Positions 36,301 through 42,300 of a stretch of 64,000 nucleotides of DNA are shown here, piece after piece. This stretch comes from Escherichia coli (GTDB taxonomy: Bacteria > Pseudomonadota > Gammaproteobacteria > Enterobacterales > Enterobacteriaceae). Position numbers: made by a program. The stretch is taken from assembly GCF_030013205.1 (NCBI RefSeq), contig NZ_CP122648.1, one strand, 5' to 3'. Within the stretch, counting starts at the first letter, position 1, and each line of letters opens with the position of its first letter.

Positions 36301-39300
36301 GCCCTGATTGCGAAATCTCGCGATACCTTTATTCGTCTGCTGAACGCCACCCCGAACGGTGTGATCCGCAACTCCGACGTGGCAAAAGGTGTGGTCGAAA
36401 CCTCCCTGAACGTCGGTGTGGTGACCATGACTGACAATAACGTAGAAATTCACTGCCTGATCCGTTCTCTGATCGACAGCGGTAAAGACTACGTGGTGAG
36501 CATGCTGGATTCGCTGGGTAAACTGGCTGGCGCGAAAACCGAAGCGAAAGGCGCATATCCTGGCTGGCAGCCGGACGCTAATTCTCCGGTGATGCATCTG
36601 GTACGTGAAACCTATCAGCGACTGTTCAACAAGACGCCGAACATCCAGATTATTCACGCGGGCCTGGAATGTGGTCTGTTTAAAAAACCGTATCCGGAAA
36701 TGGACATGGTTTCTATCGGGCCAACCATCACCGGTCCGCACTCTCCGGATGAGCAGGTTCATATCGAAAGCGTTGGTCATTACTGGACACTGCTGACTGA
36801 ATTGCTGAAAGAAATTCCGGCGAAGTAATTACGATAATGTCCACGCCTGCGGGCGTGGACAACTGTTTGAAGCCAATGGCTATCTATATCGAAATAACAA
36901 AACATTATGAAACTCATGAAAAGGTCGCATATTTATATAGCTGCGACCATATTTCATGGGGAGAATTTCTGATCACCAAAGAAAGTTTTGCGCTGGAATC
37001 CGTGAAAGAACTTAAGGGTGAAAAGCAGAAATTTTATATGTTCAGAGCCTGGGGCAAAGTCAGGAGAGCATACTTAACCACGGGAGAATTCCCCCAGGAA
37101 ACATGTTACGCCGCTTAAAGTCAGAATAATTTTTTCATGCATTTACCATTTTGGCATTACGCCTGCACCACATGGCAATGGCGGCAACCACTAATGCCAG
37201 TTCCAGTAAAAACGACCAGTGTAATAAAAAATTGAGCCACCACGGATGATGTACCGCCGTAATATGAAAGAATGCAAACGGTTGGTTAACGAAAGGCATC
37301 AGCCACCAGATATCACCGACCAGCGTATCGAGTAATAAATGGGTGATACTATTCAGGCAAAACACCACACCCAGCCACGCCGGAAGTTTATTCTTCGCAA
37401 TTGTGGCCCAGAATAACGTCGCCGCCAGCAGAGCTGGCCATAACAATGGCCAATGTGTAGGGTAAAGATGATGATGTCGTTGCCCGTTATCAACCAGATA
37501 GCACCAGAAAAGATCAAAATCGGGCGCAATGGCCCCAACTAAGCCAATAACCATCACCCAGCGCGCATGACGAGCAATCAGTGGCAAGCGTTTCACTAAA
37601 GTACAAGTTATTAAATAACCAGCCGGAAGATGACCGATAAACATGACGATTCCTTTCGTTTTTCCCGCCGCTTTCATGTAGAAAACGGCGGGAGACATTC
37701 CTCAATTACACAGCGACAAAAGCCATCCCTGTAAACGTTCGTCGCGGGTTGCCACGTTCAATCTGGTGATGGAACATTCGCCGCTGCGATTTCAGCGCCG
37801 CGCTATTTTTCTGTTGCTGCTGCTCCAGCTTCCAGGCAATCAGCAATCGCGCCAGCCGTTTGTTAGCATGCTGGCTGCGCTCTGACTGAACCTTCACGCT
37901 AATCCCGGATGCCAAATGCGTGGCGCGTACCGCCGAGTCGGTTTTATTGACATGTTGACCGCCCGGCCCCGACGAACGCAGCGTCTCATACCGGATCGCA
38001 TCGGATTGCTCCTGCTCATCAGCGGTAAAACGCCCAATGCCCAGAAACCAGTTTTTGCGCCCATGATGAGGCCGATACGGACTCGGACAAATCCACTGAA
38101 TAGTGCCGCACCAACTTTCGCTTAATGCCCATGCATTATCGCCATCCAGAGAAACCAGCGCTGAACGCAGCGTGTCAGAGTAGCGGCCCGTTTCTGTTTC
38201 CAGCACCGTTACCGCGACGTCTTGTCGGGTAGCTTCTTTAATCAGCCTGTCCAGTGCCTTTTTCACTGCGAGACAACATTCTTCCGGCCCCTGAGCTGAG
38301 GAGAGTTGTAGCAAGATCATCCTTTTTTCCCTCCACTGTTTTTGAGCGTTAGCACCGGACGCAGTCGCGCGACAGGAATAATTAAACCGGCTTGCACCAG
38401 ACATTGCACCACGCTTTCTGCCGATTTATAGGCTTGTGGCGCTTCTTCGAAGATGAGTTGTTTATCGCGACAAATCACCCGGCTGCCAAGTTCAGTACGC
38501 GAGAGTTGCGTCGCCGTGTAATTCGCTGCCAGACGCCCTTTACACTCGGTGCGCCCCCATTTACGCCCTGCCCCATGCGCCAGCGAGTGGAGCGTTTTTT
38601 CGTTCGCAACAGGCTCTACAAGCCAGGAGTAATCGCCGCGTGAACCGGGAATAATCACCAGACCGTTGTCATCCGGCGTGGCACCTTTACGATGCAACCA
38701 GCCCTGTTGATCACCGATTCGACACGCGCTAACAAAGTTATGCGCCACATCCAGAACCGGACTTCCCATGGCTTTCACTTGTTGCATTATGCGCAAAGCA
38801 ATCAGCTGGCGATTAATACGCGCAAACGCCAGCGCATCGTCATGTTCCGCAATATACCGTAGCGCGTCGTCACTGCCTTCAGGCAAACCATGATGCGAAA
38901 ACGAGGCAATATGCCGCTGTAAAATAGACTGCCCCAACCCCCTCGAGCCGCTATGAACCAGCAGTTGCAGATGCTGCGCATCCAGACCTGCCAATGCAAA
39001 CACTTCAGCGTCGATGATTTCATCAACTTGTTGCAGTTCTGCGAAGTGGTTTCCGCCACCGATAGAGCCAAGCGAGCTGCGCCACGGATGCTGTGCAAAT
39101 GCTGACGGCAGGTTTTCCTCCAGCCAGCTTTCTTCAGCAACGTCATCCAAAGCTGATAATCGCTTTTCAAACTTATCGGCGTTGTATTTACGAGCGAGAA
39201 TATCTGTTTGCCATAGCGCCATGCCACAGCCGATATCATTGCCGACCAGTGCCGGGTAAAAACGGCCTACGGAGAATAACGCTGCGCCAATCGGATAGCC

Positions 39301-42300
39301 GCGTCCGGGGTGTAAATCTGGCATCCCTACTACGCGCTGCATGTTGGGTAAATTTGCCGTGGTGTGTAATTGTTGGATCGCTAAACTCTCGATCCACAGG
39401 TCATCAGATGCGATGGTAAATACCGCATAGGATAAGGGACGAATATATTTGCCCATGTACCATTCCATTTATACTCGTCATACTTCAAGTTGCATGTACT
39501 GCGGCTGCGTTCGTTCACCCCAGTCACTTACTTATGTAAGCTTCTGGGGATTCACTCGCTTGTCGCCTTCCTGCAACTCGAATTATTTAGAGTATATAAA
39601 TATTAAAAATCAGGAAATGGCAGACGAATCCAGGGCAAGAAAAAAAGAATTAATCCTGGAAAGGTCTGCAAAGAGTCATTGATAAAGGATTTGTCATGAT
39701 TTACCTCCTTGCAGTTTGTGGAATAAGAAAACGCGCACATATTAGAAGGGCGTTATTTTCATTGCAAGCTGGATTTAATGTTGCGGTTTATAACGCATAT
39801 AAAAATTAATAAACCACGCTCCCCGGCATTCAACGCGCTGCTGCTTAACTGTCTGAAAACCATAACGTTCAAAAAAGGGTTTTGCGGTTATGCTGGCGTC
39901 CACCGTAAGTTCGGATTCAGACTTAATCAAAGGTTTTAACAAAGCGCTGGCAACCCCACGGCGGGTGTATTCAGGGTCAACAAATAACATATCGATATAA
40001 TGTTCAATGCGGGAAATAAAACCAACCGGTTGTGCATTAATGATCGCAACCCACACTTGTGATTTCGCGAGTTTCTCCTTCCAGCGAGATTCGTCAATCT
40101 GCGCCCAGGCGGCAATTTGTTGTGGTGAATAATGCTGACTGGCGGTCATCGTAACCGCTCTAATGAAAATAGCGCATAGTTGCTGAAAATCGCCAGGCTG
40201 ATAATCTCTTATTTGTATGTTATTCATAATATAAATTCAAAAACGCATGCGAAACGCTTCTGCCATTTTTCCAATTTTATGCATTTGGTTGTTATCTCGA
40301 GCCAGTTTATGAGGTTCAGGCTTCAGAATGGCAATGAGCAACCATGCTTGCTCATCAAACGCACCCTGACAATATACCAAATGCGCTTCGTCATTCGTTC
40401 TGCTGAATTGGCGCAACTGTGGCGGAAATGGATTATTCACATTTGCCAGATGAATATGAGCAACTCGCTCAAATTTGATTAATGGCCAGGTAAACGAGTC
40501 GTCGTAGAGTGCATCGCGACCAAATATATCTGGCAAAATACCGTCACGCTTATAGGAAATAAAATCCGCCGTTAACGCATCAAGTTCCTCTGCTGTAAGT
40601 TGCAGGCGAATAAGTTTTGTTTTGAATACCCGCATCCTTATTCCTTAAAGTCATTGAAATCATCATCCGTCATATCATTAAGATATTGTTCAGCGCGGCG
40701 TGTAATTTCCTCTAATCTTGCGGCACTCGGACGGAAGCGCGCCTTCACCAGTTTTTTCTCCTCTTGTTCTGCAAGCATGTCCATTAACGCTTCGAATGCG
40801 CTGGCACTTAAGAGATATCCTGCGGGGCGATTATTAGAAAGAACCGCAACCGGTTGATCAATAAAGTATTTTGCTGGATTTTTACGTAACTCAGTGATAT
40901 TGACCGATTTTTCAGCGAGAATTCGATGCATACAGTGATACCCTCATAATAATGCACACCAGAATATACATAATAGTATACATCATAATCCCAGCACCAG
41001 TTGTCTTTCCATTTGCGGGTCAAGCAACGTCACATGCAGCCCCACCAGCCGCACACCGCGCCCGCCGCGACGTTCATCCCAGGTTTTACGCGCGGTGGCA
41101 ATTAAGTCAGCTTTATTCAGCCGCGGCCAGACGTGCTCCTGAGTGGTTTGCTGAAAATCGTCGAACTTTAATTTCACCCCCTGGCGAGCAATCAGTAAAT
41201 CAGGTTTCACCTTTGCCAGACGGCGTTCAAGTTCCGGATACAGCCGCTCGATAATCGCTTCACATTCAGACCAGTGATGAATATCTTCCGCCATCGTGCG
41301 TTCCACGCCGACGGATTTTCGTAACCGTTCGCTGTTAACGTCGCGCTCGTCAATCCCCTGACTACGCTCCCACAAAATGCGGCCAAATTTGCCAAAACGT
41401 TTGAGCAGAGTCACCAGATCACACTTTTGCACATCACCGCAGGTCCGCAGCCCCATCGCTTCCAGTATTGCCGCCGAGACTTTGCCGACGCCGGGAATTT
41501 TTGCCAGCGGTAAGGTTTGCAGAAATGCCGGAACTTCTGCCGGCGTAATCACAAACTGGCCGTTGGGTTTATTCATGTCGGAGGCGATTTTAGCGAGAAA
41601 CTTTACTGGTGCCACGCCCGCAGACGCCGTCAGTTGCAGCTCGTTGAAGATTGTCTGGCGGATTTCCTGGGCGATGAGGGTCGCAGAACCGTGGCAATGG
41701 ACGCTATCAGTGACATCGAGATAGGCTTCATCCAGTGACAACGGTTCAATACGCGAGGTGTAGCGCGAGAAGATTTCACGGATATGATTTGAGGCTTCTT
41801 TGTAGGCGTCAAAGCGCCCCGGAAGCAAGGTGAGATGTGGGCATAATTTGAGCGCCATCCCAGTAGGCATAGCGCTACGTACGCCAAATTTACGCGCGGG
41901 ATAATTGGCGGTGCTGATCACCCCCCGACGTTCGCGGCTGCCGCCAATAGCAATAGGGATATCGCGCAGGGCGGGATTGTCGCGCATCTCCACTGCGGCG
42001 AAAAAGCAGTCCATATCCACATGAATGATTTTACGCATTGCTCACCTCTCAACACTGGTAAAGTATACAGTGATTTCAGGGTTTGAGAAATGCGTAAAGA
42101 TTCAGCATCTAGCGCGTTCGCTGCGAAAGCACCTGCTGCTTATCCAGCTTTTGCACCAGCGGCTGCACCACTTTATCCCCATGCTGACCAAAGTATTGAT
42201 ACAGCGTATCGGACGCACTTTTGGTCAGCACCATAATCTCAATGCGTCGGTTGCCCGCGCTTTGCGGATTTTTCGCGTCCAGCAGCATCTGGTCCGCCAT

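Follow-up and report, generated by a model that had tools for sequence, protein, structure and literature searches.

The question raised by this locus is whether a known ribosome-repair operon of Escherichia coli is extended, in some strains, by a third gene. In the window, i.e., the whole stretch of 64,000 nucleotides (nt) of contig NZ_CP122648.1 (assembly GCF_030013205.1) that was analysed, three open reading frames (ORFs) on the minus strand fill positions 37135-39468. They encode an RtcB-like RNA ligase (RtcB2), the release-factor homologue PrfH, and a putative membrane hydrolase of the YdjM family. The preliminary description of this DNA regarded the hydrolase gene as a functional extension of the rtcB-prfH operon, while adding that no membrane hydrolase was recognised as a usual third component of such loci; the surveys presented here argue against the former statement and agree with the latter. 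We consider it probable that the locus comprises the known two-gene operon, that the hydrolase gene is an optional neighbour and not a member of it, and that a conserved 5' leader preceding rtcB2 most likely governs its expression.

The distribution of the hydrolase gene carries the first part of this answer. Among 5426 complete E. coli genomes, 2674 contain full-length rtcB2-prfH, and 329 contain an 877-bp block comprising the hydrolase gene and a small ORF. About 327 of the 2674 genomes with the full-length pair (12%) also possess the block, which is missing from the remaining 88% or so. In genomes with an intact operon and no block, the homology breaks off within the final three codons of prfH (FVAV* in the window vs FIEG*). 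In these genomes, about 56 bp with a hairpin resembling the repetitive extragenic palindromic (REP) type replaces positions 36829-37713 of the window before pepD, and PrfH ends with FIEG.

The same picture was obtained between species. For a scan of one genome per species, an alignment of the N-terminal domain specific to PrfH was used; the 80 loci retained come from Enterobacterales, Pseudomonas, Burkholderiales, Neisseriales, and Xanthomonadales. In all 80, prfH is immediately preceded by rtcB2. A YdjM-family gene within 5 kb, searched with tblastn and with a hidden Markov model made from 120 family members, is found at four loci and is absent from the other 76. These four loci belong to two Escherichia species, the E. 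coli representative, and Superficieibacter electus, and they all occupy the enterobacterial dinB-pepD site, which holds only 16-17 of the 80 loci. Clustering of ORFs across the 80 loci revealed no recurrent neighbour apart from rtcB2.

Conversely, the hydrolase gene is found without the operon. One Klebsiella aerogenes genome exhibits the order yafP-hydrolase-pepD, with no rtcB or prfH and with the hydrolase gene following dinB-yafP in the same orientation at a distance of 182 nt, and four other K. aerogenes genomes exhibit yafP-rtcB-prfH-pepD and no hydrolase gene. Homologues in Leminorella and in Pseudomonas zhanjiangensis are located amid unrelated genes. Where prfH and the hydrolase gene are adjacent, their spacing differs by genus: it is 61, 92, or 113 nt, the latter two values being those found outside E. 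coli. The yafP-pepD slot, which in K. aerogenes carries either the hydrolase gene or rtcB-prfH in different genomes, thus appears as a small variable islet, of which the hydrolase gene would be a resident that is gained and lost independently. Most E. coli would have lost the 877-bp hydrolase/immunity block, and strain K-12 would have additionally lost the middle of rtcB2-prfH.

With regard to the two genes of the operon, their identity is clear. RtcB2 scored 618 bits against TIGR03073 (cut-off 271.8) and 636 bits against NF007153 (cut-off 407), and PrfH scored 328.5 bits against TIGR03072 (cut-off 166.65), all three being NCBIfam models. The earlier assignment of the first gene to an RtcB-like ligase stands, but its length of 383 residues probably does not. 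The longest ORF reaches position 39468 (383 residues), and the ATGGGC start at 39456, which gives 379 residues and is also that of RefSeq, is most likely the correct one. This start is preferred because the family model aligns from residue 5, and because it is kept in all 48 aligned leaders, the upstream ATG being missing in Citrobacter and Pseudomonas. The start of prfH overlaps the stop of rtcB2 by ATGA (GGATGATC), and PrfH comprises 204 residues with a GGQ motif, as had been read from the sequence before. PrfH belongs to the class of about 200 residues that lacks release factor (RF) domain 1. The glutamine of its GGQ motif is Q122, and the nucleophilic histidine of the HGAGR motif of RtcB2 is H294 in the 379-residue numbering; these two residues are the ones mutated in the functional study of the system (PMC9304027). 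In this E. coli lineage, the rtcB2-prfH operon is intact, and its two genes are translationally coupled. K-12 possesses only the ykfJ' and prfH' remnants, as stated in the preliminary description, with pepD 56 nt past prfH and no hydrolase gene.

The link of PrfH and RtcB to the repair of damaged ribosomes is established in the literature, where rtcB2-prfH has been described as a two-component ribosome rescue and repair module (PMC9304027, PMC9223846). In this scheme, PrfH frees the peptide from ribosomes whose 16S rRNA has been cut in the decoding centre by toxins of the colicin E3 type, and RtcB2 re-ligates the cleaved 16S rRNA. The biochemistry of this ligation (cut A1493/G1494) comes from near-identical E. 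coli proteins and not from the present allele (PMC9304027, PMC13166195). Strain MG1655, which has no hydrolase gene, is protected against colicin E3 by the cloned rtcB2-prfH pair (PMC9304027), and the complete two-gene operon is stated to be protective at natural expression levels (PMC13166195).

The second part of the answer concerns the spacer between yafP and rtcB2, which contains a conserved leader of about 150 nt. About 180 nt of this spacer are almost invariant across E. coli lineages, E. whittamii, and E. albertii, the rtcB genes being 92-96% identical. A covariance model built from 48 leaders (R1) gave one match per locus, immediately 5' of rtcB2, at 76 of the 80 species loci, and no match at loci without rtcB2, including the K. 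aerogenes locus that has the hydrolase gene only. An Rfam search with the leaders of E. coli and of five other genera returned no matching family. In 83 of 84 R1 matches, an upstream ORF (uORF) of 12-17 codons begins at a conserved ATG, and in all 83 its stop lies inside the loop between the P2b arms. The sequence of the encoded peptide is not conserved: in 10 of the 83 uORF-bearing matches, at Ralstonia, Iodobacter, and Achromobacter loci, the motif is read in another frame, which makes arrest by a specific nascent peptide unlikely.

The leader exhibits three helices, two of which share a motif. This motif, CUUUGCAG(A/G)C, has two alternative partners: the Shine-Dalgarno (SD) region of the uORF, with which it forms P1, and a downstream G(U/C)CUGC, with which it forms P2a. 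P1 and P2a share the GCAG bases. P1 is 89.6% paired. P2a is 89.4% paired and shows a GC-to-AU exchange in 21 distinct sequences and an AU-to-GC exchange in four, as counted on an alignment not fitted to P2a. Xenorhabdus carries a G-to-U change in segment B for which each of the two partners shows a corresponding change. The third helix, P3, involves CCAuUUCC, located right after the 3' strand of P2a, which is complementary to the SD of rtcB2 (GGAAUGG); the P3 sequence varies between clades and the complementarity stays. The covariation score of P2a is 0.212, vs 0.154 ± 0.010 in shuffled controls (0 of 500) and 0.095 or less in slid controls, and in an alignment-free duplex-energy test the cognate duplexes of P1, P2a, and P3 each exceeded permuted duplexes in stability (0 of 2000 permutations in each case), figures that are not to be read as probabilities. 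RNAalifold, applied to a MAFFT alignment, found P2a only, and the other helices were defined manually. The positions of these elements and of the genes are collected in Table 1.

Table 1. Features of the rtcB2-prfH locus and its surroundings, in positions of the window.
Feature	Position	Strand	Basis or remark
rtcB2, RNA ligase of the RtcB2-PrfH pair, 379 residues	38317-39456	minus	TIGR03073, NF007153, RefSeq WP_063085369.1
prfH, peptide chain release factor H, 204 residues	37706-38320	minus	TIGR03072
5' leader of rtcB2	39460-39714	minus	covariance model R1, covariation, duplex-energy test
Leader SD1	39714-39704	minus	
15-codon uORF MTNPLSMTLCRPFQD	39650-39697	minus	perfect SD
Leader segment B	39675-39663	minus	
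Leader P2b arms	39660-39655 and 39634-39629	minus	
Leader segment C	39625-39619	minus	
Leader anti-SD	39620-39613	minus	
rtcB2 SD	39466-39460	minus	
ERIC/IRU-like repeat	39474-39597	minus	U-rich loop between anti-SD and rtcB2 SD; Rfam V_AS5
Candidate sigma-70 promoter for the leader (TTGCAA, 17 nt, TAATAT)	39739-39767	minus	read by eye
Putative metal-dependent integral-membrane hydrolase, YdjM family (PF04307), 169 residues	37135-37644	minus	Pfam; RefSeq WP_063085380.1
13-bp hairpin in the 61-nt prfH-hydrolase spacer	37663-37693	minus	folding; no U-tract after it
Orphan Rhs-immunity-like gene (likely), 80 residues (RefSeq: 93 residues from 36837)	36876-37118	plus	converges on the hydrolase gene
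dinB	40983-42038	minus	first of the minus-strand gene order dinB, yafN, yafO, yafP
yafP	39775-40227	minus	318-nt spacer separates it from rtcB2
pepD	35371-36828	plus	

The repeat in the U-rich loop of P3 matches Rfam V_AS5 with 49.5 bits, a score lower than the gathering value of 96, and we take it, from the consensus of such elements, to be an enterobacterial repetitive intergenic consensus (ERIC, also intergenic repeat unit, IRU). E. coli K_EC180 and K-12 carry the complete repeat, other E. coli and E. albertii only part of it, and E. whittamii lacks it. An insertion at this position need not disturb the pairing.

A LexA or stress promoter had been suggested for positions 39469-39774, and a search of this interval returned no LexA-box-like site and no sigma-70 promoter at the scan threshold. 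The candidate promoter listed in Table 1 lies right after the yafP stop and agrees with the consensus at 8 of 12 positions, the scan threshold being 9 of 12. Across Escherichia, its -35 hexamer is invariant and its -10 hexamer nearly so. This weak promoter-like pair would give rtcB2-prfH a promoter of its own that is independent of LexA. A terminator scan of 39457-39774 called none; a U-rich tract starts about 10 nt after P2.

These pairings suggest how the leader could act. The uORF segment CUUUGCAGAC would pair either with the SD of the uORF itself or with the downstream segment, which adjoins the anti-SD that would mask the ribosome-binding site of rtcB2. A ribosome stalled on the uORF would re-pair the leader and turn the operon on, by analogy with the leader peptide PA5471.1 of Pseudomonas aeruginosa. 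The leader most likely governs the expression of rtcB2-prfH and probably senses stalled ribosomes, the direction and the trigger of the switch being proposed from this analogy. Since no obvious terminator is present and an anti-SD helix is, the enterobacterial leader may act at the level of translation.

In P. aeruginosa, armZ (PA5471) encodes an RtcB2 homologue and is followed by PA5470 (prfH). It is preceded by the 13-residue leader peptide PA5471.1, on which ribosome stalling restructures the RNA and permits armZ expression; the stalling is triggered by ribosome-targeting drugs and by suhB, cca, fmt, and folD defects (Morita 2009, reviewed in PMC3516279, PMC12057347, PMC13041342). The authors of the PA5471.1 work also reported that ykfJ of E. 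coli K-12 is induced by 4-azaleucine, an amino-acid analogue that perturbs translation. In the Pseudomonas loci of our set, the uORFs have 13 codons (MQQLITLCRSRLA or a variant of it). The model R1, which matches the enterobacterial leaders, also matches over 20 leaders of Pseudomonas at 95-115 bits. On this basis, the E. coli leader is taken as the apparent counterpart of PA5471.1. The leader is not an undescribed kind of element, its apparent counterpart in P. aeruginosa being already known.

Several observations weigh against this interpretation of the locus. As regards the leader, its equivalence to PA5471.1 is inferred from Pseudomonas species other than P. aeruginosa, and P. aeruginosa is reported to use transcription attenuation/termination, whereas the enterobacterial leader, with its anti-SD:SD helix, looks translational. 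P1 shows little covariation, because one of its strands is an SD. P3 is just 62-78% paired in column-based counts, and an extension of this helix across the start codon of rtcB2, which a prediction restricted to E. coli had given, was dropped, as it is not conserved across taxa. As the compared sequences are related, the shuffle controls overstate the significance. As regards the hydrolase gene, nearly every E. coli genome that has the block (327 of about 329) also has full-length rtcB2-prfH, and all three genes have been retained in E. albertii, E. whittamii, Superficieibacter, and one further enterobacterial contig; together, these two facts make a lineage-specific functional tie possible. 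Moreover, neither a terminator nor a promoter is predicted between prfH and the hydrolase gene, which fits a tricistronic transcript.

The last three points also speak in favour of an alternative according to which the hydrolase gene is a true lineage-specific third cistron of a ribosome-toxin defence operon, co-induced with the pair and acting at the inner membrane. Such a protein could, for example, alter a lipid or envelope component used for the import of colicins or of toxins of contact-dependent inhibition (CDI) systems, or repair membrane damage. The location of the gene, 61 nt downstream on the same strand, agrees with this, as does the pattern of its substitutions, which concentrate at the third codon position and indicate that the gene is under purifying selection. 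We nevertheless regard this alternative as unlikely. It does not account for the absence of the gene from 88% of the intact E. coli loci and from 76 of the 80 species loci, nor for the K. aerogenes slot, which carries one or the other. In addition, rtcB2-prfH alone protects against colicin E3 and E3-like toxins (PMC9304027, PMC13166195), the spacing to prfH is variable and without translational coupling, family members elsewhere have unrelated neighbours, and the hydrolase has no match in PADLOC.

The spacing itself deserves comment, since the hydrolase gene had been placed 8 nt past prfH. The gap is most likely 61 nt, with a hairpin between the two genes. The homologues all begin with MFIGH, M1, I3, and H5 being invariant or nearly so, an AAAGGAA SD is present upstream of the corresponding ATG, and RefSeq also gives 169 residues; because of these three features, the gene is delimited at 37135-37644. 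The start is most likely at 37644, and the 187-residue version is merely the longest possible ORF, its 17 extra codons coinciding with the 13-bp hairpin of the spacer. Translational coupling of the hydrolase gene to prfH is not supported by this arrangement. An 81-nt stretch with the hairpin folds at -27.5 kcal/mol (z = -3.5), and a hairpin is kept by compensatory changes both in the divergent allele of the E. coli GTDB representative and in K. aerogenes, which has yafP as the preceding gene. The strong hairpin of the window sits just upstream of the ribosome-binding site of the hydrolase gene, and a hairpin is thus maintained whichever gene precedes; it may serve in processing, stability, or attenuation. 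In the 61-nt spacer, no consensus promoter and no canonical terminator were predicted, the hairpin not being called a terminator. Co-transcription with prfH is possible in this lineage: the hydrolase gene may be read through from prfH in this strain, which would reflect adjacency rather than a shared mechanism.

The hydrolase is indeed the histidine-rich YdjM/DUF457-like membrane protein announced in the preliminary description: residues 4-157 match Pfam YdjM (PF04307) with E = 2.7e-9, and it contains 11 histidines. Among 530 homologues, H5, D42, D44, D52, H58, H59, H64, D106, and E148 are invariant. The AlphaFold2 (AF2) model is all-helical and polytopic, with a predicted local distance difference test (pLDDT) score of 93.3. 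The YdjM domain has been related to zinc phospholipase C, Het-C, and P1 nuclease (PMC8557891), and two of the homologues carry precomputed PF00882 matches. From the family, the conserved His/Asp cluster, and the published relation to phospholipase C and P1 nuclease, our best guess is that the protein is most likely an inner-membrane zinc-dependent phosphodiesterase/hydrolase that would act on a lipid-like substrate. NCBIfam has no family for the hydrolase or for the 80-residue protein encoded next to it, a search of both in PADLOC and PHROGs gave only one PHROG 'hydrolase' match (E = 0.04), and a PDB sequence search with the hydrolase returned no match. A paper on Cap1 and CRISPR, followed as a lead on DUF457, was dropped, as it concerns DUF4579.

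E. coli ydjM is an SOS gene, and members of the YdjM family are named 'LexA-binding, inner membrane-associated putative hydrolase' in some sources. The hydrolase could hence be part of the SOS response like its paralogue YdjM, by read-through from the LexA-controlled dinB-yafNOP genes, a route that would be direct in K. aerogenes, where it follows dinB-yafP by 182 nt on the same strand. A scan of 36700-42400 for CTGT-N8-ACAG, with one core mismatch allowed, yielded a single LexA-box-like site, that of dinB (42053-42072), and none near rtcB or the hydrolase gene. This site is compatible with read-through, but in the window 2.1 kb, comprising a structured leader and two genes, separate yafP from the hydrolase gene, and the homologues in other genera are not beside SOS genes. 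An SOS role is, in our view, quite improbable.

The other gene of the 877-bp block encodes a protein of 80 residues whose homologues are found in Escherichia only, apart from one Salmonella protein of 80 residues (58% identity). The gene of the latter begins 10 nt behind a full Rhs toxin gene, or else it follows orphan C-terminal fragments of Rhs. The start MAIYIE (80 residues, 36876) is found in most sources, and the start of the 93-residue version would fall inside the terminator hairpin of pepD. Compared with E. albertii, the gene exhibits 3, 2, and 15 substitutions at the first, second, and third codon positions, respectively. The 80-residue protein has no significant match in Pfam, PADLOC, or PHROGs, and the Salmonella Rhs C-terminal domain has no match in Pfam or by PDB sequence search. 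The gene is likely an orphan Rhs-immunity-like gene, the immunity role being suggested by position only. That the hydrolase and the 80-residue protein are the remains of a toxin-immunity pair is hardly credible: although YdjM domains occur as C-terminal modules of Rhs toxins (PMC8557891), the Salmonella homologue of the 80-residue protein is in the immunity position after an Rhs toxin, and both genes are gained or lost as one block in E. coli, they are convergent and not co-directional, K. aerogenes, Superficieibacter, and others have the hydrolase gene without the 80-residue gene, the C-terminal domain of the Salmonella Rhs toxin shows no similarity to the hydrolase, and the latter stands on its own as an integral membrane protein, from a family that is large and widespread.

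On the minus strand, the order is dinB, yafN, yafO, yafP, spacer, rtcB2, prfH, and the YdjM-like gene; beyond the latter, the plus strand carries the ORF of 80 or 93 residues, and then pepD. E. coli K_EC180 (NZ_CP062203) is 100% identical over 36829-39774, and its RefSeq labels are 'RNA ligase RtcB family protein', 'peptide chain release factor H', 'metal-dependent hydrolase', and 'hypothetical protein'. At the rtcB2-prfH locus, the identity of the window to most other E. coli genomes is about 95-96%. The yafN-yafO toxin-antitoxin pair is missing in some E. coli (ET201, MIN6), where dinB is directly followed by yafP; the window carries both genes (40237-40931). E. albertii exhibits an additional membrane ORF of 171 residues, with a hydrophobic C-terminal half, between pepD and the 80-residue gene. 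This ORF has no Pfam match and is absent from the window.

The feature that had drawn attention is thus an ordinary one, i.e., a characterised operon beside an annotated gene that varies independently, and stating this avoids the spreading of a false three-gene system. Besides the hydrolase gene, the yafP-pepD slot collects genes connected with interbacterial toxins, namely the repair operon and the orphan Rhs-immunity-like gene. The added value of the analysis is the link between the literature on RtcB2-PrfH repair and that on PA5471.1 in P. aeruginosa. A 2025 review stated that the PA5471.1 mechanism 'appears to be unique to MexXY' (PMC12057347), and the RtcB2-PrfH literature makes no mention of a leader and treats the regulation of the operon as unknown, so the breadth of its conservation may be unappreciated. 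The presence of the leader at 76 of 80 species loci, with covarying helices, suggests that stall-induced expression is built into the repair operon. It is possible, and we propose it tentatively, that the leader is an ancestral general sensor of ribosome damage or stalling, attached to rtcB2-prfH across Gamma- and Betaproteobacteria, which would gate rtcB2 translation in enterobacteria via a relay between SD1, the uORF segment, and the anti-SD. If so, the sensor would not be peculiar to MexXY regulation in P. aeruginosa, ribosomes cleaved by toxins of the colicin E3 type, which have been reported to stall at start codons, would switch on their own repair system, and, in this and similar lineages, co-induction would carry the hydrolase along as a passenger.

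The locus can finally be compared with the systems to which its parts belong. With the E. coli RtcB2-PrfH operon known from ATCC 25922 and other strains (PMC9304027, PMC9223846, PMC13166195), it shares the genes, the site, the ATGA coupling, and the catalytic residues, and the two genes themselves show no difference. What differs is the extra 877-bp downstream block, which most E. coli do not have, and the ERIC insertion in the leader. The hydrolase has in common with the YdjM/YbcI family (PF04307, formerly DUF457) a full-length Pfam match, the conserved set of His and Asp residues, and a polytopic helical model. The 80-residue protein resembles the products of orphan immunity genes of Rhs/polymorphic toxin loci by its 58% identity to a Salmonella protein encoded directly after Rhs C-terminal domains, but the E. 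coli gene has no adjoining toxin gene. With regard to the leader, translational attenuation of the ermC/cat type, in which a stall on the leader peptide exposes a ribosome-binding site further along, offers a similar arrangement, i.e., a short uORF, alternative pairings of a uORF segment, and a sequestered downstream SD; there is, however, no sequence relationship, and the peptide sequence of the present leader is not conserved. The leader also resembles PA5471.1. In both cases, a short SD-led leader ORF, of 13 codons in the Pseudomonas loci of our set and 15 in E. coli, stands before an rtcB2-type gene that is followed by prfH, and Pseudomonas species share with enterobacteria the core RNA motif CUUUGCAGG as well as the downstream segment that pairs with it (GGCCUGCC). 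E. coli is not known to have a link to MexZ/MexXY. The leader ORF of P. aeruginosa is described as lying about 250 bp upstream, whereas in enterobacteria about 70 nt separate the uORF stop from rtcB2.

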